Below the pieces are notes generated by a model. It made no database searches, was not told the origin of the DNA, and saw only the letters and a program-made list of their open reading frames with translations. The position numbers and the translations under genes were made by a program. DNA of 37,809 nt, taken from Seison nebaliae (Eukaryota). Position 1 is the first letter of the stretch, and every line of letters starts with the position of its first letter. Positions 5,065 to 35,240 of the stretch are shown here, piece after piece. The DNA lies in contig JALJEE010001120.1 in assembly GCA_023231475.1 (NCBI GenBank), forward strand, positions 62,001 through 99,809, read 5' to 3'.

Positions 5065-5229
5065 ATAAAAACGGAGAGATGGAGATCAAAACAAAAAAAA
5101 AAAGAAAAATGAAATGAAAATTTTAGTTTTATTTGACGTGAAAACTTTTCACTGCTAATACCATAAAAATCAACTATTTATGAAAAAGAACAATTTATGT
5201 TTCTCATTTATGAAAATTCATCGACTTCA

Positions 5230-5840: not shown

Positions 5841-6030
5841 ATTCCACTTTTTTTTTGTGTCTATTTCCTTAAAATAATAGGGAAAGGGAAGCGAAAATTA
5901 AACTTTAATTAGGAAAATTGAATTTAGTGCGGAAAAAGAATTTCATTTAACTTTTAGTTTTTCCGTTCCTTTCTATTGAATCACATTTCCAACGTGACGA
6001 GTCCTTGTCCCTAAATTACTCAATTATATC

Positions 6031-6901: not shown

Positions 6902-7070
6902 AAATTGGACTGAAGAGATTCAATGAGATTTAATTGAAAGAAAAAATAATTTTCATCAATTTCCTTTCTTTTGAAAAACTATTTCAATGAGAATAGTTTT
7001 CAATTATTAAAAATTAGTTTAATGTATGTCATCAGAGGAAATCTTTCCAAACTCTCCAAAACTGCTTAAA

Positions 7071-7296
7071 ATTCCGAAAATTTTCTAAACTTATTTAAAA
7101 TTCTAAAAATTTTCTTAACTAATTTAAGATTCCGAAAATTTTCTAAACTTATTTAAAATTCTAAAAATTTCCTTAACTTATTTAAAATGCCAAAAAATTT
7201 CCTAAAATTATTTAAAATAACAAAAAATTTTCCAAAATTATTTATAATTCTAAAAAGTTTTCCAGTTTGTTTAAACTTCTAAAAAATTTTCAAAAC
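7071..7296. repeat. AT-rich minisatellite, ~29-30-bp unit, ~8 copies
   Basis: Units ttccgaaaattttctaaacttatttaaaa and ttctaaaaattttcttaactaatttaaga alternate, then degenerate rightwards. Confidence 0.85.
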
Positions 7297-7362
7297 AGTC
7301 TAAAGTAAAATAATACGTAATAGTAAAAGAAAAGAAGAAGAAATAGATAATTTTATTGAGAA

Positions 7363-10809: not shown

Positions 10810-12844
10810 ATGCTTGTCAATCTCAGTGGTGATTATAAGAAATATGCTGCGATTTTCGGTGCTTTCCTCCTACATCTAACCATCGGAGTCAATCATTCGT
10901 TTGGTTAGTGTCCGTCTTCACTTCTACCGCCACTTAACACTTATCCTCTTCCCACCCTCCAGGTAACATAGCGCCTTATATTGTCTCGTATATTCGGTTC
11001 GGTGAGAATGGAACGACCAAATACGTCGACTTCAATCAAACTGAAGTGGTCGATGAGCGGCACTTGAACAAGTATTATTTATTCGGTGGTGATTACAGTC
11101 AAATCGTTTGGATTTATGGAACGATGTTCGGATTGCAAGGTCTCTGTTCATTCATCGGAGGATTCTATGCACCCAAATTATCCACCCGAACATTGACCTT
11201 GATTGGTTGTAGCATTGCTGAGTTACTAATAAAATTTAATTTTAAAAATTACTAATTTACATTTTTCTCACATTAAGTTTGGGCATCATCTTAACCGGAT
11301 GGACGTTGACTTCTCGTAGTTTCGGTCCCATCATAATAACATTCGGAATTATGTTCGGTTTGGGCTCCGGTATCGTCTATATCCCGCCAATACAATGTGC
11401 TATGAATGTTCGTCATTACAATTTCCTATCAATTAATCTCATTTTAAACACTTTCAGTGGATGCCAGATAAACGAGGATTAGCAACTGGAATCGTTCTTT
11501 CCGGACAAGGATTCGCTGTATTCTTTTTCAGTTTAATTCAATCAAAATTCGTCAATCCCAACAATTTACCCCCAACCAAAGTTCGAGACAGAACGGCAAT
11601 AGAAGCGTTTTCTTTAAATCTTCTCTCTCTCCCTCTCTTTCAAATATCTCATAATTTACAGTTTCTTCACACAAAAAGAATTACTTGTTCGTGTGCCCAA
11701 CATGTTTTATTTGTTAGGCGGAATTTTCATCGGAATTCAAATATTCGCCATCAGTTGGCTGCAAGATCCCGAACCGGAAGATGAAGCTAGTCCGTTGGAT
11801 GTGCACAAAATCATTCGGAATGAAAAATCGATCGATTCAATTGAGAATACGGAAATCAGTGAAAATTCTGTGTCATCCGATCACACCACAACCGAACCGT
11901 CATATCAAAATCGAGAATTGTCGACCGGTTTTCTTTCATTTCCTCATTCATCAATCTCAATTCTCACATATAATCAGTACCGGAAAAATTTACTGATCCG
12001 ATCGATAACGATTTAAACCGAACTTCGACACATGTCGAAATTTTCAATCGATTACGGTTCGAATTTATTTTGGGAAGAATAATATTTAAATATTTTATTA
12101 AAATTCAATTTCCCTTTTTTAGCGAGTCGTTATCAGATCCAGCATTTCTCATCTTATATGTCACTATGTTTTGCATTCAAACCAGTGTCGTTCTATTAGA
12201 TTCATTGTATAAAGTTTGTAATTCATCAAAATCATCAAAATCATCAAAATCCTCATCAACCTTTTCTTTCGATTTTTAGTCTTATGGACAAACATTCATT
12301 CAAGACGATCATTTCTTGAGTTATGTGGGAGCGTTTGCTTATATCGCTCATGGTTTTGGACGTATGTTCGGCGGTTATGCTTTCGATAAATTCGATTACA
12401 AAGTTAATTTAGTTTAATATTTTTTATTGTATTAAATATCGGCTAGCTATCAATGGGAGTGTCTTGTGCGGCTACTGGTGTTCTGACAGCGACCATGATC
12501 CTCACACCGTACGGACATAAGGCCATGTTCTTCATTTGGATCGTTCTCCTCTATAATTTTTGGGCATGGTGCTTCTCCATCGTGCCGTCGGCAACTGCCG
12601 CTTATTTTGGAGAGAAGAATTTCGGTCCGAATTATGGACTCATTTTCTCATCAATCTCCATCTCATCAATCTTTGGTGCTACTTTATCACACATCTTATT
12701 GGACTATGTTGGCTGGAATGGAATTTTTCTTGTGGCGGCTGTTTTCGATCTGATCTGTTAGTTCTTTTTAGAATTATCGTCAATTTAAATATGTTCCTCC
12801 GTACAGGTCTCATTCTCGTGTTTATGATCCGTTTGAAGAAATGA
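10810..12844 (+). CDS. MFS transporter, oxalate:formate antiporter/monocarboxylate-like; 10 exons
   Basis: Motifs LLHLTIG..SFG|NIAPYIVSY, GIMFGLGSGIVYIPPIQCAMN|WMPDKRGLATGIV and YFGEKNFGPNYGLIF. Introns 10904-10962, 11222-11277, 11408-11457, 11607-11661, 11928-11977, 12057-12122, 12214-12279, 12403-12446 and 12757-12806 give one continuous frame. Confidence 0.92.
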
Positions 12845-13136: not shown

Positions 13137-13818
13137 ATGGCTATCCATACGTTGGGCCATATCACTAACCATAACATCGAACAATTGCGTTTACTGAATT
13201 CCATCATTTTCCCAGTGAAATATCCACAAACCTTCTATGACAAAGTGACGACGATCTACAATAAATATTCGAAATTCGGTTCCTCATCATTCTTCCTTCT
13301 CAAATCATCATTCGTCTTCTTTTTCTCAGCTCTATACAACGACATAATTGTCGGTGCAATTTGTGCACGTATCGAACATCGAGACAATGAGACGTCGATG
13401 TATATCATGACGATTGGCGTGTTACCAGCGTACAGGAAAATGAATATCGGTTCGCATATGAGAAAGATTGATGAAAAATTTTATTTTTTTTCTTTTACGA
13501 TAGGAAGTGAGTTGATGGATGAAATCGAGAAATGTGCAAAAGCAGATAAGAGTATTCGAAGGATTTATCTGTTATTTTCTTTCACTCACACACACAAAAC
13601 AACTTTAATCTTTCTTCCAATTCGACGGGAAAAGACACGTCCAAATTGACAACGTACCTGCATTGGAGTTCTATGAGAAACGCGGTTACATTCTCGTAGA
13701 GAAAGTGGAGAATTATTACGATCTCAGTAACATGCCACACGCGTATTTATTGGAGAAGATGTTGGAGGAGGAGGAAGAGGAGAAAAAGGAAGACGAAGTG
13801 GAAAATAGTTCAACATGA
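13137..13818 (+). CDS. NAA50: N-alpha-acetyltransferase 50 (NatE catalytic subunit); 4 exons
   Basis: LGHITNHNIEQLRLLNSIIFPVKY, YIMTIGVLPAYRKMNIG, IYL|HVQIDN.PALEFYEKRGY and ENYY. Introns 13279-13329, 13450-13503, 13571-13634. Confidence 0.92.
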
Positions 13819-14584: not shown

Positions 14585-16697
14585 TTATGAGATGTGACAA
14601 CACGATAACAATTTGGCTTTACCTGGCGAATTGTGGACTTGATCGCTATGAGGATATTCGTATAACATCTCGTCATGCTCACTCATGTTATCTTTGGAAT
14701 ATGAATTAAATTTCGATGTTTTCGTTTTATTTCGATCGGACGATGTATAATTCCGTTTTCCTCCTTCCTTACCGTTATTCTTCTGTTGTTGTTGTTTGAT
14801 TGTGAGATGATTGAAGAGTTCTTTTTCTTGTTCCAATGTGATCTTTTTCTTCTCTAACGATTCCACATTATTCGTGTTGTCTTCACTCTTCGTTTTGTCG
14901 CTCGTTTTCAAATTGTTTGAGGAAGCGGTGGCATTGGAGACGGTGGTAGCGGATGACGGGGGCGGTATTGTTATGGCACTTGTTGTTGCTACTGATGGAT
15001 AATTGTTGGAATTGGATGAGTATAAACTATTTTTTTGCTCTCCATCACCACTCTCGTCACAATCGTAAAATTTCGTTACTGTCGACGACGATTCTTCGCC
15101 GTTCGCTTTGCCGGACGGTCTGGATGGTGGAGGAGGAGTCGCTGTCGTTCCAGTAACAACTTCAGCGAAATTTGTATCATATTTTCTCGCTTTTTCTCTC
15201 ATCGACGCACGACGAATCGATGACGTTCGATTAACCGTACTTCCCGTTCTTTTGAATTCTTTATTTGAACGGAATTCACAATTATTTATCTCCTTCTGTT
15301 GTTGTTGTTGTTGTTGTTGTCTTTTCTCCAACATCCAATCGACGAGATTTTGATCAGGACAAATATCTAATGGTGTGTTACCACTATCATTCTTCTTGTA
15401 CAGATCGGCACTATGTTCGATGAGATATTGAATGATTTGCGGATTTGTCCACCATGTTGCTGCGTGTAACGGTGTCCAACCGTCACTATCGGTCGGATTA
15501 ATTTCTACGTTACATTCATCAATCAGAAATTTTATAACATCGAAATAAGAATATGCCGCTGCCACATGCAAATAAGTCGCGTTGTCTTTCGAATCGAAAT
15601 CTTTCCCCAATGTTTCTTGTTGAGATTTGTACGTATTCTGGTGAATTTGACTGATGGGCAACGAGAATTGCATCGACACCAATTGCCCACTCGATTTTGG
15701 TGCAGTCAATAATGAATTCTTCACTGAATTCTCCACCACCTCCTTCAATTCTCGTAAACGTCTCAACAAATCACGTTCTGGTTGACTTCTCGTCTCATCT
15801 ATCACTTTCTGCGTAATTCCTTGATCGGCCATCTTCATCTCGATTTGAATGAGTGTGTCATTATCCTCACAGATATCATACGGCATATTTCCATCAGTAT
15901 TCACCGCAAGAACATCAGCATTGTTCTCGATCAAAATGAGAGAAACGTCTTTATGACCACAAGTAGCGGCAGCGTGTAACGGTGTCCATCCGTCATGATC
16001 CCGAATGTTCACATCCGCGTTTTTCTCCAACAAACATTTCAACAATTCAACATTGTTATCGATACAAGTCTACCATACAAACGGTTTTATAAAAAAATTT
16101 AAAAAAAATTTAAAAAAAATTTAAAAAAAATTTAAAAAAAATTGAAAAAAAATTGAAAAAAAATTGAAAAAAAATTGAAAAAAAATTGAAAAAAAATTGA
16201 AAAAAAATTGAAAAAAAAATTGGAAATAAATTGAAAAAAAATTTAAAAAAAATTTAAAAAAACTGAAAAAAAATTGAAAAAAATTTCGATAATTTTTTTG
16301 TTTGAGATGGTAAATAAAGGTAAAAAAAATAATTAATTAACCTGATGTAGAGCTGTCAAACCATCTTCGTTTGACACATTCGGATCGACACCTTCATCCA
16401 ATAATCGTTTCACTTCCTCGATATCATTTCGGAAGGTGGCGTCCAACAACGTGACGGTTTCCGTGAAATGGACATCCGATTCATGATCCAGCATGACTTC
16501 GTTGGGAACGTCTGGAAAAGATGGAAATGATGTGATAGAAGAAGGAATTGATGGAAACCGTTTAATGACGATTCATAAACATGATACTTCTCCAATTGGA
16601 GTTCACGTCGCTTCTTGGCTTGGAGAAGTCGCTCGCCAGCCGACAAACGTTCGATATTCTCCATTTCTCTTATCAATTCTTCATGTGATAGAGCCAT
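14585..16697 (-). CDS. PPP1R16A: Protein phosphatase 1 regulatory subunit 16 (MYPT3/TIMAP family); exons 16697-16559, 16511-16342, 16069-14585
   Basis: N-terminal [22 protein letters not shown], ankyrin repeats ([41 protein letters not shown]) and C-terminal CCHIS CaaX box. The A versus B paralog distinction is vertebrate-specific. Confidence 0.92.
16091..16285. repeat. A-rich 10-12-bp tandem repeat (aaaaaaattt[a] / aaaaaaaattg) inside PPP1R16 intron 2
   Basis: Directly visible array of about 17 units. Confidence 0.9.
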
Positions 16698-17149
16698 GGC
16701 GAGAAAATGGTTTAATGTTGAGCGATTTTTCTGATTGTCGATTATCTAATTATGTGGGAAGCAGTTGTGGAAGTTCATAAATATTTATCTTCTATTCTAT
16801 ATATATATATATATTGTTTGTGTATGCTATGTCAGTTCCACATCAATACGTGTACACGACCATCATGTTTATCATGATCTGTGATCGATAGTGAAGTACG
16901 ATAGTTTTCGTTTCAGGAAAAGAAGAATTAGATTGTTGTAAGAAAAAGAAGTTTTTTCTTGAGAATCTTTTTTTTTTCTTTCCAAATTAAAACGACATTG
17001 AAGGAATGAAATGAAATATCATCTGTCGAACGAAATGAAAAGAGATGAGTCATTATTGCAAAATAATTCAATTGTTTCATTTCATTCATTTCCTCTCTCT
17101 CGAAATGAGAGAGAAATAATGATCATGACCATCATCACTAACAATGAGA

Positions 17150-17194
17150 ACATCATCATTATCATTATTATCATTATTATTATTATTATTATTA
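17150..17194. repeat. (ATT/ATC)n microsatellite
   Basis: Run reading catcatcattatcattattatcattattattattattatt. Confidence 0.85.
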
Positions 17195-18674
17195 GTGAAT
17201 AGTAGAAAATCGTTTTAAATAAAAAGTTCCATTTCCAAACTTCTTTTACGTCGTTATCTCCTTCTTCCCTCGTTTCCCTTCTCCCTTTCTCCTCGACTTC
17301 ACTCACTCACTCAATTATTGATTTGACATCATTCTCATTTATTCTTCTCTCATATCGAATATGCTGACAATGAACGATTTCTTTTACGGAAAATTAGACA
17401 GCAACTATTTTCTCCTCCTTCAAAACTCTCTCTCATTTCACATTATCATTCGTTCGTTCGTCCGTTCGTTCATCCATCAGTCAATCCCTCAAAATAACAC
17501 GATTGTTGTTTTTGAGTGAGAGTTAGATAGAAATTGAGAGAAAGGAAATCATATTCGCTAAATGACGACTCGTTCATTGGTATTCGTGCATGTCGCCCGC
17601 TCAATTGTCCGGTGGAACGGCCTCTCTCCTATTCCTCCTCCCCCTTCACTGCATCGAACGAGCAGAGAAAGAATAAAGTTTGATGGTAACTTGATCGATT
17701 AGAGTTTAGTTTGTCCTTGAAAAATGAAACATGGATCTCCATTAAACTTCTCCTCTCCCATTTGTCAAATTAGTGGACATAATTTTTTGGATGAAAGACA
17801 CTTGCTTTTTTTTCTTTCTTTCATTCACTTTTCCTCTACTCTATATCGTCATCACTTCTGGATCTCCATCTGATTCATTTCCATCATCTTTCATCGATTC
17901 CTTCATACATGATGAGTGGAGTGGTGGGGGGGCAAGTGTGTGCCATATAATGTGTAGTGAGGGAATGGATGTGGAACGAGGAAGACCATCAGCTCGTAAT
18001 GATTGAAACAGATTCAAAAAAAAAAAAAGGAAAAGAAAAGAAGGAATAAAAGAGAAAATGTTTGTGTGTTGGGCCCTTCCATTTTTTCTTCTTCTTCTTC
18101 TTGTTGTTGTTTCACAATCATCGAGAAAGAAATAGAAGGAAAATGACGAGAGGATGCATTCTACACACACCACTAATAATAACAACATCATTAAAATGAT
18201 TCTTGTCGTTCGTCTGGGAGAAGAAATTTATTGAACATTTCATCATCCATTCGATTCGATCGAGAAACATAATAATTTCCATCGAAAAGAAATTGGGGAT
18301 CGCATGAAAATGACATAAGAAATAAGAAACGAATCATAATGATGATACAGATGAATCAGTGTTAAACTACTATCCAGCATCAGGGATATCATCGATGTTT
18401 CCCAAGAATAATAATCTGTCTATCATCCATCTTCCATCCTCTCCGCTTTTGCGTCAGCAGTTCATTCGGATAATTATTTAGGAAGATTATAAAAATTCTC
18501 AAATTCTTCTTGATGATGAACAAAATAAATTAATTACATCAAATGGAATTAAATACATTTCATCATATCCATTTCTCTCATTTATATATCTCACTTATTT
18601 ATGGATGTCCTCTTCAATACCTCTCTCCATATCCATATGCAGAAGACACTGCTCTTATTCACCTACGTGTGCAT

Positions 18675-18697
18675 GTGTGTGTGTGTGTGTGTGTGTG
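18675..18697. repeat. (GT)n microsatellite
   Basis: Pure gt run; similar runs at ~14238-14262 and (CA) ~33092-33128. Confidence 0.85.
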
Positions 18698-19706
18698 TTG
18701 TGTTGTGTGTACACATGCGTGTAATATATTTTTATGATTGATACATCTTCAATCGCCACATATTGATCTTATTTAATTATGTAATTTCATTAAATTCACT
18801 TCTTTCTCCATTTTCTCAAATCTTGAAGTGTGTATGGGGAAAAAAAAGAATGAATTTATTAGCATTATGTACGAAAATCATATATTTATGAGAGATGGAC
18901 AATGATGGGAAACAATAGATAAGTTGAAAAACGATTTGAACAATTCAACTGATTGAAAAGGCTAAACTTTCAATTCAACAAATTTTCCCTTCTCATCCAT
19001 CTCCCCCCACTCGCCATCATTAGCGAGAAAATCATTCCAACCGATCGACGCTCGTCACCAACGACCGTTTTTCACCGTTTTTTTACCGTTTCTCACACAT
19101 TTAATATCTGGAAAGATGATTGATGGAATGAACGTTCCATCTCTCACCCATCATTCTGACACTAGTAGTAGTAGAGATATGGTAGTAGGAGGAATTGCGT
19201 TCGTACGTGATCAACGATTAATTGTTGGTCAACTGTTGAGGAGGGACATGAGTTTGGGATGATGGATGGGAACAGAAGCAATTGGAAATATGTTCCAATC
19301 TGCCAATCATTCGGAAGATTATTAGTTTGTTCTTCTCAACACTGGCAGCGTGCTTCCAATCTGAATTTTCCGTCTTTATCAGAAGTATGAATTGAGCGGA
19401 GAAAGTAGGAAGGAAGTGGAGGAAGGTGAAGGATGAAACAAATTTTCAAGTAGTTGCCCTACTGAATAAATTTGAATTTCATTAAGCGATGAATTCTTTT
19501 CAGATGTGAATGAGAACGACGAATGTAATTGTCGTTCAGTGTCGTGCGCATCATCCGAATCATAATGACGATTAATTTTATTATCATGTACATAAAATAA
19601 ATAAACTAGTTTAATGGAAGCACGACTAACTCAATTGATAACGATTATTTGATGACGATGCTGAACGAAATAGAAGAAGAAATTCTTTTAAGATTCTTAA
19701 AAGATA

Positions 19707-19708
<2 letters not shown>

Positions 19709-19739
<31 letters not shown>

Positions 19740-19740
19740 C
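19709..19740. repeat. (TTC)n microsatellite
   Basis: About 10 ttc units. Confidence 0.85.
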
Positions 19741-21944
19741 GTCCCTTCCATTACTCTCTATTACATCCCCTCCATTCCTGTCATACTTCTTCTCCTACTT
19801 ATTGATATTAGAAAAATATAATAATAATTAATATAACATTATCAAGAAGAAGAAGAAGAAAAAAAATACTCTAATTTCCATTCTACTACGACTCAAACGC
19901 ATCACACCATGTCTACTCGAGAATAACCGTCCTTCCTTCTCGCCATATCCACTCGATCGGTTCCTATTGCGCAAAAGATAATATGAATCCACTTAATACC
20001 AGTCATTGACATCTTCTCGGCTTGAGAGAGTGAGCCATGTCCCTTCAAACATTCCTTACCCTCCACCCACTAACATCAATCTGCATCGTCCTACTTAATT
20101 AATTATAATTAATTTTTGATTATTCTCTTATGTTGACGTCAATTCGAAATAAAATGTTTCCTATTATCGTCTCTCTCTCTCTCTCTCTCTTTCTCTTTCT
20201 CCATCATCATTTCCTCCTTACAAACTGAACGAACATACGGATAAATAGACAGATATATATATCCGCAATCGTCCTATCTTCCAAATGGAATTACTTCTCC
20301 AATTCGATTGTTCCCAACGACTTCTGGAAGTGCCTCTTTGTCTGATTACACTAACGATTATTGAATTGTTGAAGCAACTTGTCAATTCTAATACCTTTAT
20401 CATCTCATTGTCGAACACGAAGGAAATGTCAATTCTCTTCAATTCCAATTCTATTTAATAACCGATCACTTCTATCGTCCAATAAACGAGTCTCGTTCAA
20501 CTATCTCCCATTCAACATCGATGTAACTTGTTAATAATTCAACGAGTGGAATTTTCATTTACATTACAATGACATCCGAGTGCCATCCCCAATAAATATG
20601 ATATCATTTCCACAATACTTCGAATATATCATGAACTATTTATTAAGTTAATTATCAATAACGAGATCAATGTTGAGTAACACGAGAATTAATAGAAAAT
20701 TCGCTCGAGGCAAATTGTCGGTAGCTAACGCTCCGCACTTCCTACGGGAAAGACCATCATAATTCTTCATTTACCTAATCGACAGTCCTTCATAATGAGT
20801 AATGATGCTTTCGGAAATGCGTAATCTACCTTTTAAATTGATTATTCTCCATTAAATCTTTTCATTTTTTCTCTTTCTCCATCTCTTTTTTTTTTGGAAA
20901 AAAACACATTCCTCATTTACCATTTCTCTAATTATTGCATCGAGAAATCTGCTCGTTCCATCTTTCTCTCCCTCGTTCACAATGAGAGGAAGTGAGAGGC
21001 AGAATATGGAACTAGCAAGAAATTAGAAATTTCTTTATTTCATATAAACTTATTTTTAAAATAATATTTTCTATATGAAATTGTTCGGACTGACACGAGT
21101 GAGAAAAAAATGTGAATTAATTAATTAATTAATTTTATTAAAACTAAACATGTTTTTATTAGAAGTTGATGATAAATCCGTTCAAATCATTCCATCTGAT
21201 TATTTTAATTGTCTTAAAATTAAATTTTGACGATGACTCCATTCAATTTTGATGGAATGAAACTTTAAATAAATAATTTGACTAAATTAAATTGGACATT
21301 GAATGTGGTCATTTGAGAAAATATGGAATAGACACAAGTAGTAACAAGTTTTGTTAATTGATGTTTAAATTGAAATTTGGAGGATGATGTTGGGAAAAAA
21401 GAATTAATGAAAGGAACTGTTATTAAAATGGACGAGTTGAGGCTTTCTTTCAAGCAGTTTTTCTTTGTGAAATTCGAAGGGGATGAAAAGGAAGAGGGAC
21501 GAGAAGATCGAGCTCGACGTCAAGAGAGACGGGGAGAAGATAAGATAAATATAAGATAAACATACAGCGGTAAATGATATAAATAAATGGAGGCAAATAA
21601 GTGTATGGTAGTAGGGATGAATATGAAAGAAGTGTATATGTTATAGGACGATATATGTCAGACAAATCTCACCAAAAAAGAGAAGGTGACTAGTTATTTT
21701 TCAAATTAAATAAAAACTTCTTTTCAAAATTCATATAACCAATTCTTTATGTAATATGTATATAATTGCTATACGATAATGTACGTCGTACACGTGAACA
21801 CCATTAAACACAATTGAAACAAATGAAAAGTTTCTTTTTTATAGATTCTTGAGAATTCCCTTAAATTTCTCATTGTCAAGTTATAATACTGAAAGTGGAC
21901 ATATTTGACTGAGAGACACCCAGAAAATTATCAATTAAACGATC

Positions 21945-24771
21945 ATGAATGAGCATGAGAAGATCTCGCCCGAGCTCATATCGGATGTGGAGCGATTGCA
22001 GGAGTTGCGCAAAGAGGCCGCACATCAACTCGACAGTACGGAACTACTCATATTCGTCTCATTACTCATAGTCGTCATTCTAACGATTTGGCTCTTCAAA
22101 TATAAGCGAGTGCGATTCGTCCACGAGACGGGTTGTGCTATCGTTTACGGATTGGTCATCGGCTCCATCATCAAATACATCGTTCCTTCTCACTCAGCTG
22201 ATCATTCTTACGTCAATTTGAACGTGACGAGTAACATAATTACGAATTATCGTGACCCACCTCAAATCTTGAGAATTCCCGCCGAAAATTCATCGATCAT
22301 TTTCTCGTACGAATTGAATGACGCTCATTTGCGTACCGTCAAAGAACGATCGGCAATCGTCGATAAAATGACATTTTCACCCGAAATCTTCTTCAATCTC
22401 CTCTTGCCACCTATCATCTTTTATGCCGGTTATTCGATGCATCGAGGTCATTTCTTTAAGAATTTCGGGACGATACTCACTTTCGCTTTCATCGGAACGA
22501 CGATCGCTTGTTTCATTTTTGGAAGTATCGTCTATACCGTCGTCGTATCGTCGAGTATCAAAGAATGGATGGATTTTTCTGATTGCACTTTCTTCGGCGC
22601 ATTAATCAGTGCCACCGATCCCGTCACCGTTCTCGCCATTTTCAACGATCTACATGTCGATGTGGATTTGTATGCGATGGTATTCGGTGAGAGTGTGATG
22701 AACGATGCTGTTGCACTCGTTCTAGCCGAGTTAGTCCATTTAATTTAATAAATTATTTAGTATTTTATTTAAATTTCTTTCTTTTTCCATAAAATTTTTA
22801 ATTTTAATTATTAGTATAATTCATGGAGTTAAAGAAAAGAAGTATGTTTCCAATTCTCGTTTTTCTGATAATGATAAAAAAAAACTGTCATCGTCTCTTT
22901 CTTTCTCTTTCTCTTTCTACTCTATCTCACGAGAGGAAAATGCACGTATTCAAATTCAACTCTTTTAGTCAACAAACTCATTTGAATTTTCTTTCGGTCC
23001 TCTCATCGGAAAAAACTAATAGCCAGACAATTAATATCTCACTCATTATATTCTGTGTATTCTTTTAAATTTAATAAATTAATCCAATTTCTTTTAGTAC
23101 AATCGAATCGTTCTCCACCTCGCACAAACCACCCACCATCGGTCTACTAGAGGCAGTTGGCAGATTCATTATGATCTTCACCGGTGGTTTCGCCATCGGT
23201 GCCAGCATCGCCATCATTACCGCTCTCATCACCAAGATGACGAATTTGAGAGATCATCCTTTACTCGAAATCGTCTTGTTCTTTCTCATGTCATATTCGT
23301 CGTTCTTGGCAGCGGAAGCTGTCAAATTCACTGGCATCGTATCGATATTATTTTGTGGAATTCTTCAAGCACATTACACCTATCACAACTTGTCAACAGA
23401 AGGGAAAAATAGAAGTAAAGAAGTTGAATTTGAAATTTGAAAAAAAATTAAAATTTTTTTTTTTTAAGATTTTTGAATTACTCAGTTTTATGAGTGAGAA
23501 TTTCATATTCCTTTATATCGGCATAACTCTCACTACCTTCCCATATCATCAATGGCAATATGCTTTCCTCATCGTCTCTTTCGTTAATTTCATTAATTAT
23601 CAACAATAATTTATTATTTATAAAATTAATTAATTTGAAGATCGGAATCGCTGTAGCACGAGCTATTTCCGTTTATGTTCTTTCATTCTGTTTGAATTTT
23701 GGACGAATTCAAAAAATTTCTTGGAATCAACAACATATGCTCTGGTTCTCTGGATTGAGAGGAGCGGTGGCGTTCGCTCTTGCCATTCGTAACACCTCCA
23801 CAAAAGCACGACAATTGATGATAACGAATACGGCACTCATCGTTCTCGTGACGGTTATCATCAACGGTGGATTGACGACGACCGTTTTATCATTCCTCAA
23901 AATTCCCATAAATGTTTCAGATGATATTGAAAATGAAGTTTCCAATTTTGTTCAAATTAAAATTTAAATTTCCATCATCAGCATCAATTGTTGACGAATG
24001 AGAATAATGTGAACGATTTAAAGAACGTGGATAAACGTGTGGCACTTCCTCTCCGATTATTTCAGAAATTCGACCACAATTACTTGAAACCCTTTCTCAC
24101 ACATAGTCGTCCCACTCTCATCGAGACATGTCCTCGATGGTTATTCTGGTTCGCTTACATCTTCACATCGGACGAACAAAAAACGTCGCGCACTTCCCCA
24201 ATTCATAGTTCGGATGAGAACGATCAACCCAATATCAACAAACAATTCAATCCCATGTTCATGCCACACGACGACAATCATCAGAATAATGAAATGGTTA
24301 GTAAGAATGACGAGAAGGAAAGAAAAGAATAAGAATTAAATTTTCCTTTAACTCTATTGACACTCAACGAGAATAAGTTTGACATTTTCCACTTTTTTTG
24401 GCATTTGGAAATTTATCGTTTGCTGCTACTTTCATTACCATCTGTTTCTCCTCAACACATCATTCCCATTCGACAGATCCAGCTATCCCATTATTTCGAG
24501 ACATGTTCCGTTTTCTGGTTTTTTATAGAAAAAATAATTTGAAAAAAAAAATTTTTGAAAATATAATAATTTGAAAAAAAAAATTTTTGAAAAAAAAAGT
24601 TTGAAAAAAAAATTATAATTTCTGCTAAATTCCGTATGATATTGATAACCGTTTTGCTTGTGGGAAAAATTTTAATTCTCTTCCAAATACTTTCTCTAGA
24701 TGAACGAAAGAAGTTTGAAGAGGCCGATGGAGAGTCGTGATAATATTGACGTAAATTTTATTGATCTGTAA
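21945..24771 (+). CDS. Endosomal/organellar Na+(K+)/H+ exchanger, NHE6/7/9 clade; 6 exons
   Basis: [66 protein letters not shown] and [13 protein letters not shown]. Introns 22730-23097, 23423-23468, 23583-23640, 23938-23981 and 24297-24699 (the last is less certain). Confidence 0.94.
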
Positions 24772-24879
24772 AAAATCAGAAAAAAATTTTTTTTTCATTC
24801 AATAGTTTATTTATTAAATCAATTCTATTTGAACTATCAATTTATTTATTCTAATAAAATTTCATTTCATCCAATCAAA

Positions 24880-25140
24880 TTATTCTTCCACGTTATATCT
24901 TAATTTGGAATTGTCTTCAATGAACTTCTCTTCGACTTTGTGATGAACTTGATCGTATGGTGATATCATCAGATTCACTCCCTTCACATATTGGACGTAA
25001 GCGAAGATTGGAACGGTTACCATGAAAGTTCTCCACACCATCTTCACAAACGGCGAATTGTTGTACTGATAACGCCAGGGAAACATCGCCACTTTCTGGA
25101 GTAGTCCATATGGATATTTAACTTTCACTCGACCTTCCAT
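24880..25140 (-). CDS. Small (86 aa) single-pass membrane protein resembling Drosophila roh (CG30415)
   Basis: GRVKVKYPYGLLQKVAMFPWRY...TVPIFAYV matches my recollection of the GRxxxYPYTxxAKxAQFP pattern of roh-like proteins. The first ATG is at 25140. Confidence 0.65.
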   Translation of the reverse strand: MEGRVKVKYPYGLLQKVAMFPWRYQYNNSPFVKMVWRTFMVTVPIFAYVQYVKGVNLMISPYDQVHHKVEEKFIEDNSKLRYNVEE

Positions 25141-26959
25141 TGCTGATTCCAAATTATATTTATTTCTTCTCGTTGATGAGAGCTTCACTTTCACAATCTT
25201 ATCTAAATAACTTTTCTGTTTTTTCAGTCTTTTATTTTATAATGTTTGACTTGTTTCGTATTTTTTGGGAAATTATTTTCATTTATATTTACTCTCATTT
25301 TATTAGCAAGAGAATCATATTTTCTCGCAAAAAATAGGCCTTTCATAGACCTCGGTTGTCATAGGCCTTTCAATAGAGCATTTATGTTCACGATTTGCGA
25401 ATTGACTCCTTTGTCATTACTCTTGGTGCAGTTCCAACGTATACACAATGTGAGAGCTTCTCGTCGCCTCTCCAGTTTTTTTGAAACTAATACTCAATTA
25501 ATTATCCTCTTTCACTTGAGGATGCGCTATTGTTGACGTCAAACTTCAACATTTCCTCCTATGTTCCTGATTCTCTCAAAAATTACATAGAAGCAGGGAG
25601 GAGTTTGTTACTTAATAACTCTTTTAAGGATTTATCTTTATTTCTTTATAATTTACCCCGCGGGGATTTGGTCTAATAATAAAAAAAAACCTATATCCTA
25701 AAACCGATGTATGATAAGTAAAACGTAAAATTAGGTTCTGAATGTATCAATTTCTTTACCTCTTACAATCCATTGTTAATCTTCTTCTTACAATAAACTT
25801 GATAGTTTAAACTATTTCTATTAAACTTTTGCGAAATGTGGCTAAACAAATAGTTTAAACTAAACAAAAACATTTATTTTACTCATAGTTCAGTTTAAAT
25901 GAGGCAAAATATTAAGATGCACATTTATTCGTTAATAAAATTGTTATACAATAACACTTCCTTCTCGAAACTATTGGTCGATTGGTTTGACATTGCGTCA
26001 AAGATGCAAGAATGACTAAAATTAAAATTCCATATTTTATTAATAAGAAAAAATTAGTTTTTCTCGCTTTTCAAAATTCCAATACATTTGAATAACATGA
26101 AAACATTTTCTCACCGAACTTTCATAAACTGATAATTTATTATTAATAATTAATTCATAACTCAGTTAAAGATTAGTTTGGATTTTTTGCAACTGTTCTT
26201 TTCTTCCAACGGTTCGATGAGCGGTTTAGAATATCAAAATTCTTCCTCGTCAAAAGATCTTCAGTATTCACGTAAAATATTTGAATCGAAAAAATTGATG
26301 TTGGTATCGACTTCAATGAACTCAAACTATCTGATCATGACCATCTTCGAATCATACTCCGTATGAATAGGAACCATATGAAGTCTGGATTTTTTTCTCA
26401 AAATGTATAGGAGAATCGAGTCTTATTACACTCGAATGACGAATCACTTGCACAGTCCTTCACATGTGAGAGGAAAATCGAGAGTAGGAAAGTGAAGAGA
26501 ACTAGTTAAGAGAATTTTAATAATGAGAAATTATTAATGAATGCGCGTCCATTTATACCGGATGATTATACAATGATGAACTATGAAGTGTTGCACAATA
26601 CAACATGCCTTACTGACGATGTTGAATTCAATTACGTATTGATAGTCCCATCATAACAAGTGAACAAACGATTTCACATATTGATTCCATAAAGGTTTAT
26701 CAGAACATGCAATGATTTAGTGAGTATCTGTGAAAATTATAATGGTTTGTTCTGATTTGTTCTACCGTTCAAAAAATTACTAATGAGAAACGTTTTATCT
26801 CATACTTAAAATTTTTATTTCTAGTTTTCCATTCTATTACACGAACATGTTAGAATTATATAGGAACATTAAATTTATTATTAAAGAATTAAGACGATTA
26901 AGATTTATTGGGGGGAGGGAGGGGAGGAGGATGGTTTAGAGAAGGATAAAGGGCAAATA

Positions 26960-28003
26960 TTAAATGGTGCAAACACAGATAATTAAGATGATAACGAAAC
27001 AAGCGACTACAGTAAATAGAATAAAAATTCCAAAATATATGTAATGTTGTTGAATTTCCATTTTGGACATTTGTGGATGTTCGGACTTGAATAATAATTC
27101 CTTAACCGTAAAACGGACATTCTGGAAAAAAGTTTCTTGATGTGGAACGATGGAGCGTTGGCTTCTCTCACTCTCTTCCACTTTATTGTTCGCTTTCTTC
27201 GTTTGATACATACTCTTCAAATCGTGTTTGCAGAACGGTTTCAATTGTTGGGCATAACGACACCGACGTTTCTGATAGATGAATCCGTTGTCACAATTGG
27301 AATCGTTGACATCTAAACATCGTCGTTTTCTCATCATCCATTTCTGACATTGTTTCATCAACTTTTTGATATTGGTTTGGAAGATGATTGTACTGTCGCT
27401 ACGTTTCTTCTGAGTGAACATTTCGAATTGTTTTCCGTCTTCCATTGAACATTGACTCGTATCCCAAATGGTCCATCGATAATTTCTCTTTCGTCTTCTC
27501 AATGAAATTAATCTTTTTTTTCGTTCGTTATCTGGTAAATGTTGACCACGATAAGGTGTGAGATGCATATGTTTATAGGCCGATTTCCTCCAAAACACTT
27601 GTGGCTCTTTTCGATAGAGTGGCGCATTCATAAACTCTTTCAATCTCTCTCTATGTCTCTCTTTGGAGGATTCGAAGAAATATTTGGCATGCTGTTTGGG
27701 ACACTCCCAAGGGAACAAACTACAATGATAGGGACCTAAAACGGAATCTGGTCTATCTGCCGGTAAGCCTTTCTCGACATATGTCACAATGTCATCGAAC
27801 GAACATTGAATCAACGTCTGTCCACACAATTCATAAAGTGCACGTTTCTGATCTTCGTTCAACAATGTCATGAGAGCCCAGACACCTGGTGAGATATAAT
27901 ACTTTTTATCATTATACTCACCGACGATGTTCGGAAAAATAAAACTTCCACAATGACAATAACTTAAGAAATTAATGAATAAAATGAATAATTCTTTCTT
28001 CAT
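26960..28003 (-). CDS. 347-aa type I membrane protein with TSP1-like repeat
   Basis: Signal peptide, furin-like RRRKR, then WTIWDTSQCS...RKRRC..C...QKRRC, and a C-terminal TM helix. Intronless. Confidence 0.72.
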   Translation of the reverse strand: MKKELFILFINFLSYCHCGSFIFPNIVGEYNDKKYYISPGVWALMTLLNEDQKRALYELCGQTLIQCSFDDIVTYVEKGLPADRPDSVLGPYHCSLFPWECPKQHAKYFFESSKERHRERLKEFMNAPLYRKEPQVFWRKSAYKHMHLTPYRGQHLPDNERKKRLISLRRRKRNYRWTIWDTSQCSMEDGKQFEMFTQKKRSDSTIIFQTNIKKLMKQCQKWMMRKRRCLDVNDSNCDNGFIYQKRRCRYAQQLKPFCKHDLKSMYQTKKANNKVEESERSQRSIVPHQETFFQNVRFTVKELLFKSEHPQMSKMEIQQHYIYFGIFILFTVVACFVIILIICVCTI

Positions 28004-28108
28004 TACTCATTATAAAAAACGGTTATGGAAATGAATAAATTAACAATTATTCGATTGTTCAACTGTCTTCAAATGGAACTTCTTTTTCTTCTTCTTCTTC
28101 TTCTTCTT

Positions 28109-29624
28109 CTACAATCCATCCATTAACGACAGTAAATTCATCGAATTATCCACTCCATTTTTCTTCATTCGACTCTGCATATTCGTCAGATGTTTATTAT
28201 GTTCCGACTACAATTTAAAATTATTTATTATTTTTAATTATTATTATTATCATAATTAATTTAACATTCTCTTTAAATTGGAGTACGGTAAAATTGACTT
28301 TTTCTTCTTTCTCCTCTTCAACATCCGTTCGATACTCATTATAATCTCTAAAAATAATCAATTTTTTCCATTCTATTCAAAATGCTCAACAATTCGTCAC
28401 AGTCGTCAGCGAACAAATCAATTTGAATATCATCTTTCCGTGATTTTTGTTCGCCAATAATCATTTTTTGCAATAAATCCGATTTCCTTACTATAAATCC
28501 TTGATCGATATCAGGTACGACATACGACGATGTCTGAGAGACTTGGTCTGTTGAATTTCTGTAATTACTTGTCGTAGTGGTCGGTGTGTTAATGTACCTG
28601 AATTTATTTTTAAATTTGAACGAAACTATTTGATTTTAAAGACCAACATATTCTCACCCAACTTACTTGGCAATCGATGTCCTTTGTATTTGATGGCGAA
28701 ATTGCCAGGACTATTACAAATAATATATTTAACATTCGTTTCGAATCGTTTCGTTTCCACTACTCTCTTATCCTCGTAATATCTAAGCAATTTTTGATGA
28801 GTGATGGTGTGAGGAAAGAAACCTGATTTCACCTGGTACTTCAGTATCGAATGGCATGAGACCACTATCGTCGATGATGAAGGAACCGTCGGAATTCTGT
28901 TTTTTATTTTTGAGGAAAATCGAGACGCGAATACGCAGATCTTGGAAATAGATAAGGATTTGTTGATAACATGTCAACAATTCATAATCGGACATCTCAC
29001 AATATGCCTAACAAATTAATGTTATGGAAATAAATGATGGAAATAAATGTGAACTTTACGAAATAATTCTGCCGTGAAATCGATATTTCTCAGAACTAAT
29101 TTACAATTGTTCGTATTTCCTTGATTCATCTCCGTCAACATTTGACGTAACGTGTCTAAGTGGGCGAGACTGATAAGAATGCAATCTCGAGGACGGAGAA
29201 CTTTCGTCAACTGATATTTGACAATCATTGTCATCAGATCATATAACTAACAATAAAAAATAAAAAAAGGAAAAATTTTCAAATTAAATTAAATTGAAAA
29301 ATCCTTTCCAAACTTTGTTCATGTTATTTGAATTTAATTTTAAGATGGATGCATGTGCAATCTTGTCGAAAATATTTCTCAGATTCGATGTGGAGAACAT
29401 TTCTTGTGGTTTGAACACCTCCTCCACAAACGGTCGATGAAACATCGAAGTGATGATATCTTGCATAACTGTAATCGGATTAATCACTTCGACTGATCAA
29501 TCAAATTGAAACTTTTTCTTTTCTTTTCACTCGTAATTTCCTGATCGCGTAACCGTTGATCAAGAATGTAAACCATTTCACCACCTAAATTAATTAGTAG
29601 GAATGGAAGGGTTTTCAACGACAT
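28109..29624 (-). CDS. OSCP1: OSCP1 (organic solute carrier partner 1; ciliary protein); 8 exons
   Basis: MSLKTLPFLLINLGGEMVYILDQRL, AHASILKLN..MNK|LYDLMTM.VKYQ, FQDLRIRVSIFLK, EVPGEIR, LGENM|Y and terminal NLLSLMDGL*. Introns 29469-29512, 29247-29313, 29008-29054, 28783-28822, 28598-28647, 28348-28390, 28208-28265. Confidence 0.94.
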
Positions 29625-29715
29625 TCTCCTAATATACTTTTTCCAATATAAAATTGATTTTTTTCCAAAAGTATCGGTTTCTTTAATTTTAGAAAGTGGA
29701 GCAGATACTTTTAAC

Positions 29716-29729
29716 ATTGCCAAGGCAAC
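29716..29729 (-). promoter_or_regulatory. X-box-like RFX site GTTGCCTTGGCAAT
   Basis: Near-match to GTTNCCATGGNAAC, ~90 bp upstream of the OSCP1 ATG. Confidence 0.55.
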
Positions 29730-29863
29730 GACTAAATTCCATAGCATCATTCGAGAAATATCACAAATAAGAACAATCATCACTTTTAACTATTAGTTCT
29801 TAAGCTTTTCATATTATTTATTTATTATTTATATTATTTCTTTCTTAATTTTTATAGAATTTC

Positions 29864-29877
29864 GTTTCCATGGAAAC
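29864..29877. promoter_or_regulatory. Perfect RFX X-box GTTTCCATGGAAAC
   Basis: Exact palindromic X-box within a 22-bp perfect palindrome (29860-29881), ~240 bp upstream of the ciliary gene OSCP1. Confidence 0.8.
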
Positions 29878-29977
29878 GAAAAAGAAGAAATTCGAATCGT
29901 ATAATAATTTAATTAGGAAGAATACAAAGAAAAAAATTGATAGAATTCATTAAAATCGCATGTATAATTATCGACAA

Positions 29978-32812
29978 TTACGCGCCCTTATCCTCTCTCA
30001 AGTTCACCATCATTTGAATAATATTACGGTTTAATGTCGCTAGAATGGCATTGGAATCATCATCATCCTCATCGTTCGTGATTTGTGCAACTCCGTTATT
30101 CGCCAATATCATTTGAACATTAATCGGAGCGACAATTAACAGATTTGTCAATGAATACAACGTATTAAACACTTGATCGACAACGAGTGAATTGCACGAT
30201 TTCAAAACGTCCCGATATATTTTCACATCGAACAATACCATCATTCCACCTGAATATATGTTAAAAAAAATATGTTATTTTATCATTTCTCTCTCATAAA
30301 TCAGGATACAAATGTGAAATTTCTTAAGTGAAATTAAATTAAGATTTTTCTCTTTGAATTTCATTCAGAATTTTAAATTTTCAAAAATTTTCAAAAATTC
30401 CATTAAGTAATTCATAATAATTTTCCAATTTATAAAATTCATCAGAAATAATTGGAGAAGAAGGAGAAAAAGTAAGTACTAACCGAGTTCGTTGTATTCG
30501 AAGCGACAAATATGGTCATAAATTATTCGATGTAAACGTAATCCGTATTCCATTAGAATGGGATGTTGAAATTCGAACTGTTCGATTGGCAGTTTCCGTT
30601 GGGCATCGATACTGACAAGATCGACTTGCGTTTTCTCCACACGATCATTGATGGAGATTTTGGAAATGTTGCCTTTATATCGATTGGTGATATTGAGTCG
30701 ATTAATCTCGTCGATATATCGATGTTCTTCGTTGGCTTGTTCGGAGGTCAATCGGAACAATATGGATTTGATTCGTTTGATTTGTTCGCTGATCACTTTC
30801 GATGTGAATTGACAAGCGACGGTACTCTCCTTCATTTCCAATCCGTTCTGAACCGGTTTATAATCGGTTTTTTTTTGTTTCTGAGTGAGAATTAATTGAA
30901 GATAAGAAATGCAAGCGGAAAGATATTTTTCTTGTCCGTCAATCAATCGTTGTTCGATGGATCGAATGAATTTTAGTTTTTCACTCAATATAATATTCTT
31001 CGATTTCGACGAATAGATGTTGGGTAGAATGAAAGCGTTAGTAATCAAATTTAATTTTAAAACGATAATTTCAATTCGATGAATCGCATGTAACATATCG
31101 AGATTAACACCGTTTGTGAACAAGACATCCTCGCTATTCAGAGCGAGTTGTTGTGATCGATTATTCAAGAGATTTTGTGATGGCAAATTTTGTGTGATGA
31201 GATCGAATATGAAATAAAGAAATTCATCGAACAAGAACTTGAGAAGATAATGATATAATTGAATGACATTCTCTTCGATCTTCTCTCGCCAACTCGTCAT
31301 TTGAACGAAGAGAACATTGTTCATCCGTTTGATGGTTCGATAAAGGACATTGAAGAATTGTTTGACGGTGTTGACAGAAAGGAGTGTAGACAAATCATCA
31401 ACATTGATCAAATTATCATTTGATTCATTTATTTTGATCAGTTTATTAATGGACTGATATTTTTTCATTAATTGATTTGAAATATTTTCGAGATGACGAA
31501 AACGTTTCGATTCATTTGAATAGAATTTTATTAAAATAAATTGTAAAGAATATTGAAAATTTTTCATCTCATTGAAAACGTATCGATTGATCAATGTCTC
31601 ATTACTTTCCATCAATTCCACATAGAATCGATTGACGAATTGATAATCGTTAATTACTCGAACATTAATTAATTCTTCATGAAATCGTTGAATTAATTCA
31701 CAATTATCTTTTAAAAATTCGAGAGAATTAAATGAATTCCTTTCATTATTCTTTTCCTCTCCATCTTCTTCCTCCTCTACGACTACAATTTTACCATTCC
31801 CACTCACTTTCATTCGTTCGATTAAATCGATGGTATAACGACGGAATGATTGTTGATAAATTTCTTTCACAATCTTTTCCGTCGTTTTCTCATTAACATC
31901 GGGATAGATTTGATTCAATAATTTTTGCGAGTCTTCCGCTACTTGAACTAATTTTGTAATGTTGATTATTTCAGACGACGTCTTTCCATTTGACATACCA
32001 CCCCCCGCACGATAATAAATGAGATATTGAAGAATGACAAATTGAATGAATTGTTGATATGAATAGAATGAGATTAACATTCGTGAAATGGAATTTAATC
32101 GATTAATATTCGTTTTATTTAATAAATTCTCTTCAAATTGTTTCTTTACATTTAATTTCATTTCTACATATTTTTTCTCGATATATTTCTTCACGAATTG
32201 ATATCGATCCATATTTATATCGGAACTAATCGAATATAATTTTACCCACAATCGACAATTTCTCTCGTTCATCTCATCGTCCGAATTCGTCGAAGATGGT
32301 GCAGCAGCACATGATGGTAATTGATCGTTAATTTCAATCGTCGAATTGATGAGAATAAAAGTGTCTTCATTATCCAAATTATTTTCATTCTCGATTATAT
32401 CGACGAGAATGGTAAGAACGTCTTTCGTCTCAATTAATCGTTGACGTGGTAAACTGATTTTCTCGAGATCGTGACCGATTCCTGCGATCTTCGTCGCAAT
32501 ATTCGTTATCGAATCATCCAATGTCGTAGCTGTGGATGAAGAATGGACAATACTCTTCTCATTATCATTCAACATCATACTGAAACCGTTCAATTGAGTG
32601 GATGCATAAAAATTCTGACAATCTTCGATATATCTCTGTCTCGTCTCTTCGTATTCCTCGTCTAAATTCTCGAGGACATTATTGAAATAGTCGGTCATGT
32701 AAGAGGCGTCGCGAAGACCATCTTCATCGATGACGGAGATGATAGTTTCTACCGCTTTATTCACATCGAAACCATGAAGAGAATCGGAAGAGAAATTCAC
32801 AAGATTTGTCAT
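29978..32812 (-). CDS. EXOC5: Exocyst complex component 5 (Sec10), divergent; exons 32812-30484, 30249-29978
   Basis: LDDSITNIATKIAGIGHDLE..PRQR, ILTQKQKKTDYKP, STVACQ, EYGLRLHRIIYDHI..FEYNEL|GGMMVLFDVKIYR and LTNLLIVAP.N. Intron 30250-30483. Confidence 0.88.
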
Positions 32813-33615
32813 CTTTTAAAAATTATCATAATTTTTCGTATTTTGAAGCGGAAAATTTGAAATTAGAAAATCTTCCAAGTCATCTTCCCAACAACTCATT
32901 GGACGTTTAATATTATTTCTTTTTCAATTTTATCTTTAAATCAATTATTTTTTCCATTATCATTCGTCCTTCTTCGCCTCTCACTCATCCATCATATCAA
33001 CTGCTGATTAGAGAATAACATTTCGGCTACAAATCTCCCTCATAAATGAATCATGTATCTTTCTTATATAGCTAAATGAATTGTCTTTCCAACACACACA
33101 AACACACGCACACACACACACACACGCACGAGCGAATGAGTAAGTGTGTGAGTGAAATGGGATTTGTGTTTACTTACTCCATTTTCTTCCCATGTCAATG
33201 ACAAATACCGCGTTCCTCATCAAACATATGAATCTCATAAAGTATCATCAATGACTTTTATAAAAGTTTACATGAAAAACAAATATTGTAAGATTGCGAT
33301 GTGGAAACGATAAAAAAAAGTGGAAATTCTCATTTTCCTTTCACATTTTCTCTCCGTCCTGAAATGACCAGAAAATGGTGTGCATTTTTTCTTTCAAGAA
33401 TTCTTTCGTTTCTTTTTCACATTCTATTCTCTAATGTCTTATAAACTTTCTAACTCTTACAAACTAGTCCTTTCTCCACTCAAGTATTATATGTTATATT
33501 TTATTCTTCATTTCCTCATGAAAATCATTTATACTTTTCTTTTATTTTCAATTTAATTTTCCTTCCACTATTCGTTATGTTGAATTTTTCTAATTTTCAA
33601 CTTCGTCAAATGTGA

Positions 33616-35240
33616 TTAAATCCATTCGAATCGAAACCATGGATCATAATATTGGAAGCTCGTTTTCAGAATTGTGATGTAGAGTTCATGATTCGGTATT
33701 TGACCGGGATCGGCTTCGAGAATTGCTTTCAGGAAACCATGAAGTACGGGCGGGAGAGAAGGATAAATCGATTCGATAACAAACTCATTTTTCATCTAAT
33801 AATAATGGGAAATGAGTGAAAAAAAATAATTGGATGGGAACTTTCCTTGTCAATTGAATGAGATATTCCTCGTCTGATGGTTTCATTTCCGGAATATCAG
33901 TACGTAATCCAGCCGCTGGTTCGAATAGTTTCGGATCTTTCGTATAAATACTATTATCTAACTGAAAAGGATATTTTAATTTAAATTTTTTAATTTTAAT
34001 TTAAACTGTTTCCGTATTACTCGCTGATAATCCTTCAACGTTCAGACCGAATTCCTCTCTCTCACTAATATGTCGTTTGATTCGAGCGACTGCTTGAGCG
34101 TCTGATGCTTTATGACTGAAAGCTAAACGTTTCTCCAATATCGCCAGAACGATATGTTCCGCCGACCAAGGTAAAATACCCAAATGTAAATAAATAAGTA
34201 AGAAGGCGAGCGATTCAATATCATCGATCATACGGAGAGTTTGATTTTTGGACGTCATTCTCGGTTCGAAGAGTGATTGTAATGCAGTAATTTTCTCTTC
34301 TTTCAAACTATTCTCATCTCTTAATAGAGGCAAATTCGGATCGTCGTCTAAAGTAGAAATGAATCGACCGTATTGTTTCGTGGGTGTAGAACACACGTGC
34401 ATTCGAGAGAAGTCGATCAAATAAATTTTATTCACTTCATTTCCTTTTCCTACCACGATATTTTTCGTACTCAAATTACTTCCAATTCCAATTTGATTAT
34501 AGAAAAATGAATGGAAAATTTCCGTTTTTTTTTTTTAAATTAATGAAAAGTTTCCATTTTTTTTTTCAAATCAATAAATAATTTTCGTTATTGAAATATT
34601 TGATTGAAAGAAGAAAATTTAACTTGTATACCAATCCCAGATTGTGTAGAGTGCTCAATTGGAGCAATACCATAATTCCGATATAGGAGATGGATTTCAA
34701 CGACAATTTATCTTTCAATCGCAATTGTAACGAGTGAATACTGCCCCGATGCAATTGCATAGAGATGAATTCGTACATTTTCTCATTCTTCACATCTTTT
34801 GTCGACGATTTAACTGGTATTCGACCGTAAGCATAAACCGTTGAGAATCGATACATGTACGGCACATGTTTTTTGAGAATTTTATAAATTAAATATTCGT
34901 GACATAACGATTGGCGATTCTTTTCGTCTCTTTCACCGCCTCCATTTAACAATTTCAAGGCAATATTAATCTGCAACAATTTATCATGACATTCGAGTAG
35001 AGAGACTCGATTCGACGCTTCCAAATGATCTAGAACTTCGTATCGACCTTCAATCGTCGTTCCAATCGGAAAGTCAGATTCCAGAGTTTCTGGTGCGTTA
35101 GGAGCGGCGTCGACTAGTGAACACAAATTGAGTAATTGATATGTTTCCAAATCAGTCGAATCTTCTCTCACTAAACAACTTCGTGAGAAATCGGTTCGTT
35201 GTGAAGTAATGAATTCGATGGACTTCTTTTTCAGTGCCAT
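33616..35240 (-). CDS. CK1-group (CK1/TTBK/VRK-like) kinase-fold protein, probable pseudokinase; 4 exons
   Basis: IALK, HEYLIYKIL, QLSTLHNLGLVY|NNLSTKNIVVG, KIYLIDFS, DDIESLAFLLIYLHLGILPW and terminal FEW. Introns 34479-34623, 33962-34006, 33796-33841. Confidence 0.82.

Follow-up and report, generated by a model that had tools for sequence, protein, structure and literature searches.

Intron position +3 faces position 6 of the 5' arm of the U1 small nuclear RNA (snRNA), whose standard sequence ACUUAC lies opposite the donor GUAAGU (bioRxiv 10.1101/2022.06.08.495308). We found a U1 change at position 6 of the kind considered here reported only for amoebae, where Entamoeba, the one lineage described with +3U donors, has a U1 candidate that reads ACAAAC (Roy and Bowser, bioRxiv 10.1101/2022.06.08.495308). 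The same preprint describes compensatory arm changes in Mastigamoeba balamuthi (ACGUAC), which is intron-rich, and in Physarum, which carries ACAUAC copies together with standard ones. In these two, however, the change lies at U1 position 5, opposite intron +4, and both are amoebozoans, not animals. A lineage-wide shift of one donor base is also described in Saccharomycotina, as a switch between A and U at +4 that is tied to METTL16 and SNRNP27K, with invariant U1 and U6 sequences (PMC10581693). In this study, we analyzed the intron donors in a 37,809-nucleotide (nt) stretch of the genome of Seison nebaliae, a rotifer called parasite-like (contig JALJEE010001120.1; hereafter the window). All counts below refer to this one window and not to the whole genome. 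As in Entamoeba, U at +3 was nearly universal (33 of 34 introns, and 6 of 6 donors in a second genome), and the A at U1 position 6, predicted there by a genome search, is here a prediction made from the donors. Entamoeba has few introns and a strict donor hexamer (GUUUGU in 88-90%), changed at both +3 and +4. Seison, by contrast, is an animal rich in introns (34 in 37.8 kb), whose donors are fixed at +3 alone and loose from +4 to +6.

Thirty-five introns were called by hand in 12 genes, and the reading frame was preserved in all of them. The intron at 24297 was excluded because both deposited isoforms of the NHE gene read through this position to a stop codon at 24330-24332, leaving 34 introns of 40-368 nt (median 53 nt). 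All 34 have GT...AG ends and restore the reading frame when spliced, as major U2-type introns do. Exact mapping of the deposited proteins P0001, P0121, P0122 and P0123 and of the library protein P0124 matched 21 of the 34, and the deposited models add donors at 22842, 12831 and 35036, so that these five proteins imply 24 distinct donors. The first NHE exon, at 21945, is 99% identical to SNEBB_011328 (the next matches are 47-54% identical), and two other genes of the window match SNEBB_011326 and SNEBB_011331.

Position +3 was T in 33 of the 34 introns and C in the remaining one. This exceeds both the background of the window, where T follows GT in 37% of positions (p = 8e-14), and the 46% T inside the introns (p = 1e-10). 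The purine expected at +3 of U2-type donors was found in none of the 34 and in one of the 24 protein-implied donors; the other 23 have +3T, the exception being +3A at 22842. In 23 of the 34 introns, no other in-frame GT lies within 30 nt, and the choice of donor was therefore not the caller's. The other donor positions were loose: +4 was T in 12, A in 11, C in 8 and G in 3 introns, which at 0.06 bits makes the position of the Saccharomycotina switch almost uninformative in Seison. G was enriched at +5 (10/34, compared with 6.4% G in intron interiors; p = 4e-5), and the exon ends were rich in A (-2A in 19/35, -1A in 17/35). A -1G/+5G seesaw was looked for and rejected as undetectable (p = 0.45). 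Among other AT-rich invertebrates, +3U is a minority class.

A bias of this kind could be spurious, produced by the T-richness of the introns, by the calling of introns by hand or by a self-trained gene predictor. The introns are indeed T-rich, the deposited models may share one trained donor model, junction support consists of reading frame, deposited proteins and homology, and the sequencing runs that were compared are DNA contigs, in which splice joints were absent. On the other hand, the excess of +3T goes far beyond intron composition, the junctions are fixed by homology, and +3T is conserved in a second genome, a support that is independent of any annotation. We therefore find an artefact hardly credible. 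This second genome was recovered when four DNA runs were compared with positions 10780-13850 at 80% likeness. Beside the exact genome, contigs of depth 2-4 were found whose exons are about 85% alike and whose introns could not be aligned. PMC8351084 describes two diverged strains of S. nebaliae, and we infer that the low-depth contigs belong to such a second lineage. They cover 6 of the 12 donors in this region (11222, 11408, 11607, 12057, 12403 and 13279), with alignments ending at +3 (11224, 11410, 12059), +4 (11610, 12406) or +7 (13285). Their loose ends read GTTTCA for GTTACT, GTTTAT for GTTCGT, GTTTCT for GTTTTC and GTTACT for GTTAAT; the donor at 13279 is unchanged and that at 12057 differs at +4. 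T at +3 is thus kept in all six (0.458^6 = 0.009), securely in five from the alignment ends and probably at 13279, since 33 differences fell outside those listed. Positions +4 to +6 were kept at 8 of 16 sites, which is not above chance (p = 0.15). The GTT start of Seison donors is a real, conserved trait of the lineage.

The first-pass annotation had noted that all five introns over 100 bp start with GTTA and proposed GTTAGT as the optimal donor, on the background that longer introns usually need donors nearer to U1 complementarity. The five hexamers it listed, at 22730, 24297, 30483 (-), 16341 (-) and 34623 (-), are all present where it placed them. The GTTA start holds for 22730, 16341, 34623 and 30483, of which 22730 and 30483 are real GTTAGT donors; it fails in that 24297 lacks support and that the deposited models bring in 22842 (GTATGT) and 12831 (GTTTGA). 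Among short introns, GTTA opens 7 of 30 in our re-called set, in agreement with the earlier estimate of about 8 of 32, and GTTAGT opens 2 of 30. The difference between long and short introns depended on the set: one-sided Fisher tests for GTTA, which are post hoc and cover 4-6 long introns, gave p = 0.0024 with the introns as first annotated (5/5 and 7/30), 0.0071 without 24297 (4/4), 0.026 with 22842 added (4/5), 0.057 with 12831 added as well (4/6) and 0.082 with isoform P0121 (3/4 and 8/31). For GTTAGT, p = 0.014 weakened to 0.06-0.4 on the corrected sets. The proposal for long introns is partly supported by these counts, and a wider measure, which leaves +3 out, gave a more stable result. 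Over the ten positions of the U1 target without +3, long donors matched at 7, 6, 7 and 6, compared with a mean of 5.07 for short ones (p = 0.004, or 0.002 when the GTATGT intron at 22842 is counted as long). Among the 30 short introns, longer ones likewise match better at +4 to +6 (rho = 0.43, p = 0.019). In none of the four supported long introns is +3A restored; they retain T there and match U1 better elsewhere. The two long donors that lack +5G follow an exon end that reads CAG or CAA. That long donors improve elsewhere without restoring +3A suggests that selection for U1-like pairing acts on them, and points to a changed U1.

We consider it moderately probable that the U1 arm of Seison reads ACUAAC, with A in place of U at position 6, as predicted from the donor sequences. 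The standard U at this position would pair with A, or with G by wobble, giving the mixed +3R of other eukaryotes, whereas with A only U at +3 would pair. A single partner would keep +3U fixed and could explain why a donor that is loose elsewhere has one fixed base. In short AT-rich introns, recognition across the intron would need little beyond GUU and A-rich exon ends, while longer introns would require the fuller CAG/GUUAGU duplex. After hand-over to U6, +3U opposite U6 G50 would be a tolerated wobble. A likely path to such an arm is the temporary coexistence of two U1 forms, of which the newer gained ground while donors drifted. The near-fixation of +3T, its retention in the second genome, the better U1 match of long donors elsewhere and the Entamoeba case speak for an ACUAAC arm. 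In yeast, where U1 and U6 are standard, a donor with A3U is suboptimal (PMC3632134). The step taken by the first-pass annotation from GTTAGT donors to a U1 change is sound in its pairing logic, but GTTAGT stands at only two of the four long introns with support and is not specific to U1, because +4 to +6 are also contacts of U6.

That shared contact belongs to a second explanation, in which U1 is standard and +3U is imposed later through U6 or by protein. U6 G50 could take +3U as a wobble, or U6 itself could be altered, with U6 modified by N6-methyladenosine (m6A) favouring +4A; altered Prp28, Prp8, U1C or Luc7 could likewise select GUU. GTTAGT would be the best donor here too. In yeast, U6 position 50 is the partner of +3, and the largest shifts in selectivity caused by prp28 alleles are at +3 and +5 (PMC3632134); m6A in U6 is needed for +4A (PMC11347140, PMC10581693). 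Seison also lacks about a third of the BUSCO genes (PMC8351084), which makes a loss of splicing factors plausible. If U1 were standard, +3A should be an advantage in the strongest donors, whereas +3T is retained by all four supported long introns, which improve at other positions. The standard arm formed stable in-register duplexes with 16 of 34 donors, compared with 25 for an arm with A6, a circular comparison that ignores pseudouridine. We regard this explanation, the main rival, as possible but less likely.

The same calculation gave stable duplexes for all 34 donors with G at position 6, and G6 was as good as A6 at telling true donors from decoys (area under the curve 0.68 for G6, 0.67 for A6 and 0.55 for the standard arm, with the same circularity and neglect of pseudouridine). 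An arm reading ACUGAC would form a wobble pair with +3U and a Watson-Crick pair with +3C, and the only exception among the 34 donors is indeed a +3C. At 1/34, however, +3C lies below the 22% C that follows GT in the window, and a second assumption is then required: that +3C is rare because it over-stabilizes pairing with U6 G50, for which a C3-G50 hyper-stabilization described in yeast (PMC3632134) gives a precedent. We judge G6 improbable. Still less probable, in our view, is that U1 is lost or unpaired and that U5, U6 and proteins choose the donor, as in Cyanidioschyzon merolae (PMC10158995). The very weak donors of short introns and the A-rich exon ends would suit such a loss. Against it, the genes have many introns and show alternative splicing, long donors fit the U1 target, the C-A-G on the exon side included, and longer introns do not match unmodified U6 (TGT) any better (p = 0.27).

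Several observations weigh against an A at position 6. The arm ACUAAC is read from donors, the Seison U1 itself being a prediction; pairing energies fit G as well as A; and one deposited donor, at 22842, carries +3A. Past GTT, complementarity is nearly absent from many short donors, which fits recognition by protein too, just as GTTAGT also fits U6. Standard U1 is retained in most lineages with atypical donors (bioRxiv 10.1101/2022.06.08.495308; PMC10581693), including 227 of 230 Saccharomycotina genomes (PMC10581693) and Thecamonas, Mamiellales, Giardia and Trichomonas (bioRxiv 10.1101/2022.06.08.495308), although in these lineages it is mainly +4 that has changed, a shift accounted for by U6 methylation (PMC10581693, PMC11347140). 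Finally, an arm-free U1 pattern matched at least 131 loci on metagenome contigs, 11 of them confirmed as U1 by Rfam; the matches listed comprised 110 readable arms, 11 armless loci and 10 truncated ones, and all 110 readable arms had T at position 6. A strict variant-arm pattern, in which position 6 is not T, had no match in these contigs, where Seison is unexpected. A change at position 6 would thus be rare, while the scan does not bear on the U1 of Seison itself.

The environmental U1 genes showed some variation elsewhere in the arm. Four plant-like copies (L018, L068, L111 and L118; 4/110 among the matches listed) have A at arm position 5, matching +4U donors, and show that variant arms can persist alongside standard ones. 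Four others, animal-like and in mostly AT-rich DNA (L092, L094, L095 and L124; Rfam scores 118-125 bits), have an arm that starts AAAC and a T at position 9 that would pair with exon -1A. In one metagenome contig, a U5 gene adjoins the U1 gene (L013:40-154). A U1 pattern had no match in viral contigs. In the window, no snRNA was identified by Rfam, whose two weak matches lay far below threshold, which agrees with the earlier report of no U1 gene there.

In other respects, Seison introns share GT-AG ends, +5G enrichment and stronger donors in longer introns with standard U2-type introns (GUAAGU / GURAG), and differ from them, besides U instead of a purine at +3, in their acceptors. These were CAG in 14, TAG in 11 and AAG in 9 of the 34 introns, a share of AAG that looks high for an animal; one AAG acceptor reads TAG in the second genome. 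Relaxed selection at acceptor position -3 could be tied to the +3 change. Near the 3' end, the branch-point motifs CTRAY and YTRAY were not in excess, and CTCAT, the best of nine patterns tried, occurred in 7/34 (p = 0.0005). No donor among the 38 rows had the strict U12-type sequence RTATCCTT. An intramolecular pairing between donor and branch point was rejected, as the reverse complement of the donor hexamer was found in 0 of 38 intron rows. GMAP calls a short gap an intron only if both ends score well under a standard splice model. In a published Seison transcript mapping, 32 of 36 distinct gaps of 42-92 nt, counted by eye in part 1 of 400, were entered as deletions and not as introns (PMC8351084, file 2). 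This gives a hint of atypical donors throughout, although weak acceptors could have the same effect. Among the listed rows of that file, none of the window genes was recognized from 11 length patterns, while a control pattern was recovered.

Table 1. Introns and related features of the window, with donors and supporting evidence.
Feature	Position	Strand	Length and donor	Support
NHE6/7/9-type exchanger, intron 1	22730..23097	+	368 nt, CGA/GTTAGT	P0001 maps exactly; homolog alignment continuous
NHE alternative exon	22815..22841	+	27 nt; divides intron 1 into 85 + 256 nt	Isoform P0121
Intron after NHE alternative exon	22842-23097	+	256 nt, GTATGT (+3A)	P0121
Fifth long intron of the first-pass annotation	24297..24699	+	GTTAGT	Frame kept if spliced; unsupported
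NHE short introns	23423..23981	+	46, 58, 44 nt; GTTGAA, GTTAAT, GTTTCC	P0001, homologs
PPP1R16/MYPT-like ankyrin gene, intron 2	16070..16341	-	272 nt, CAG/GTTAAT	Spliced model equals P0124 letter for letter
Ankyrin gene, intron 1	16512..16558	-	47 nt, GTTTCC	P0124
Sec10 intron	30250..30483	-	234 nt, TCG/GTTAGT	Frame kept; Sec10_HB domain runs on into next exon
CK1-like kinase intron	34479..34623	-	145 nt, CAA/GTTAAA; acceptor AAG	P0123
CK1-like kinase short introns	33796..34006	-	45 + 46 nt; GTTTAA, GTTCCC	P0123
MFS transporter, 9 introns	10904..12806	+	44-66 nt, all GTT; GTTAGT at 10904, 12757	P0122
NAA50-like acetyltransferase, 3 introns	13279..13634	+	51-64 nt, all GTT	Frame, deposited model, second genome (13279)
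MFS-NAA50-like fusion intron	12831-13107	+	277 nt, GTTTGA	P0122
OSCP1, 5 introns	28598..29512	-	40-67 nt, all GTT	Frame kept
TRAP-beta intron	3038..3084	+	47 nt, GAG/GTCTTT; only +3C donor of the 34, with exon-side AG	Frame
Six short introns: EPRS (493, 388), CFAP90-like (5735), unnamed gene (6265), Ig-domain gene (8418, 8177)	331..8418		52-83 nt, all GTT	Hand-called, frame kept

Some of the features in Table 1 deserve comment. The full form of the 9-residue insert encoded by the NHE alternative exon is found in none of 11 aligned homologs, one of which has three residues there. The intron at 12831 was rejected as a real long-intron counter-example, as the second genome is alike through the MFS stop codon at 12844; the fusion of the MFS transporter to the NAA50-like gene in P0122 is probably an annotation artefact. 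The second genome is alike again from the AG at 13102-13107, which may belong to a 5' untranslated region or be a trans-splice acceptor. For the NAA50-like intron at 13450, a GC alternative at 13454 yields the identical peptide. P0123 removes another in-frame kinase intron of 66 nt (GTTCTA; 34971-35036, - strand), which was taken as coding in the hand calls. At one OSCP1 junction, positions 20-75 of Pfam Oscp1 meet positions 74-118, as TRAP_beta positions 10-49 and 49-177 do at the TRAP-beta junction. The window also holds a high-copy element at 25350-25700, with contig depths of 1136 and 3593 (bin 25147-25813), while depths elsewhere are about 8 and 17. At 25656-25665 there is a GC palindrome, followed within a few bases by CTAA, which we take to recall a Helitron-type end.

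A search of the mostly open literature found no paper on a donor bias in Seison or on an animal with a compensated U1. The available part of PMC8351084 makes no mention of snRNA, and those of PMC10125929 and PMC10639083 mention Seison and do not describe its donors. If the density of the window holds across 43.9 Mb, the genome would contain about 39,000 GUU donors. Standard donor models would mis-score the introns of this genome. The U1 5' arm is among the most fixed sequences of eukaryotes, and its change should be hardest where introns are many. Seison may therefore be an intron-rich animal with a re-coded major spliceosome, in which a predicted ACUAAC U1 would serve tens of thousands of GUU donors, a prospect that we see as evenly balanced and that would make it the first animal case of a U1-donor swap, without intron loss or a strict consensus. 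If true, the existence of such a compensated U1 in an animal whose genes carry several introns each would mean that donors can be re-coded across a whole genome while the introns are kept. If U1 is standard instead, Seison would be a natural case for learning what else, among U6, Prp28, Prp8 and U1C, fixes +3.

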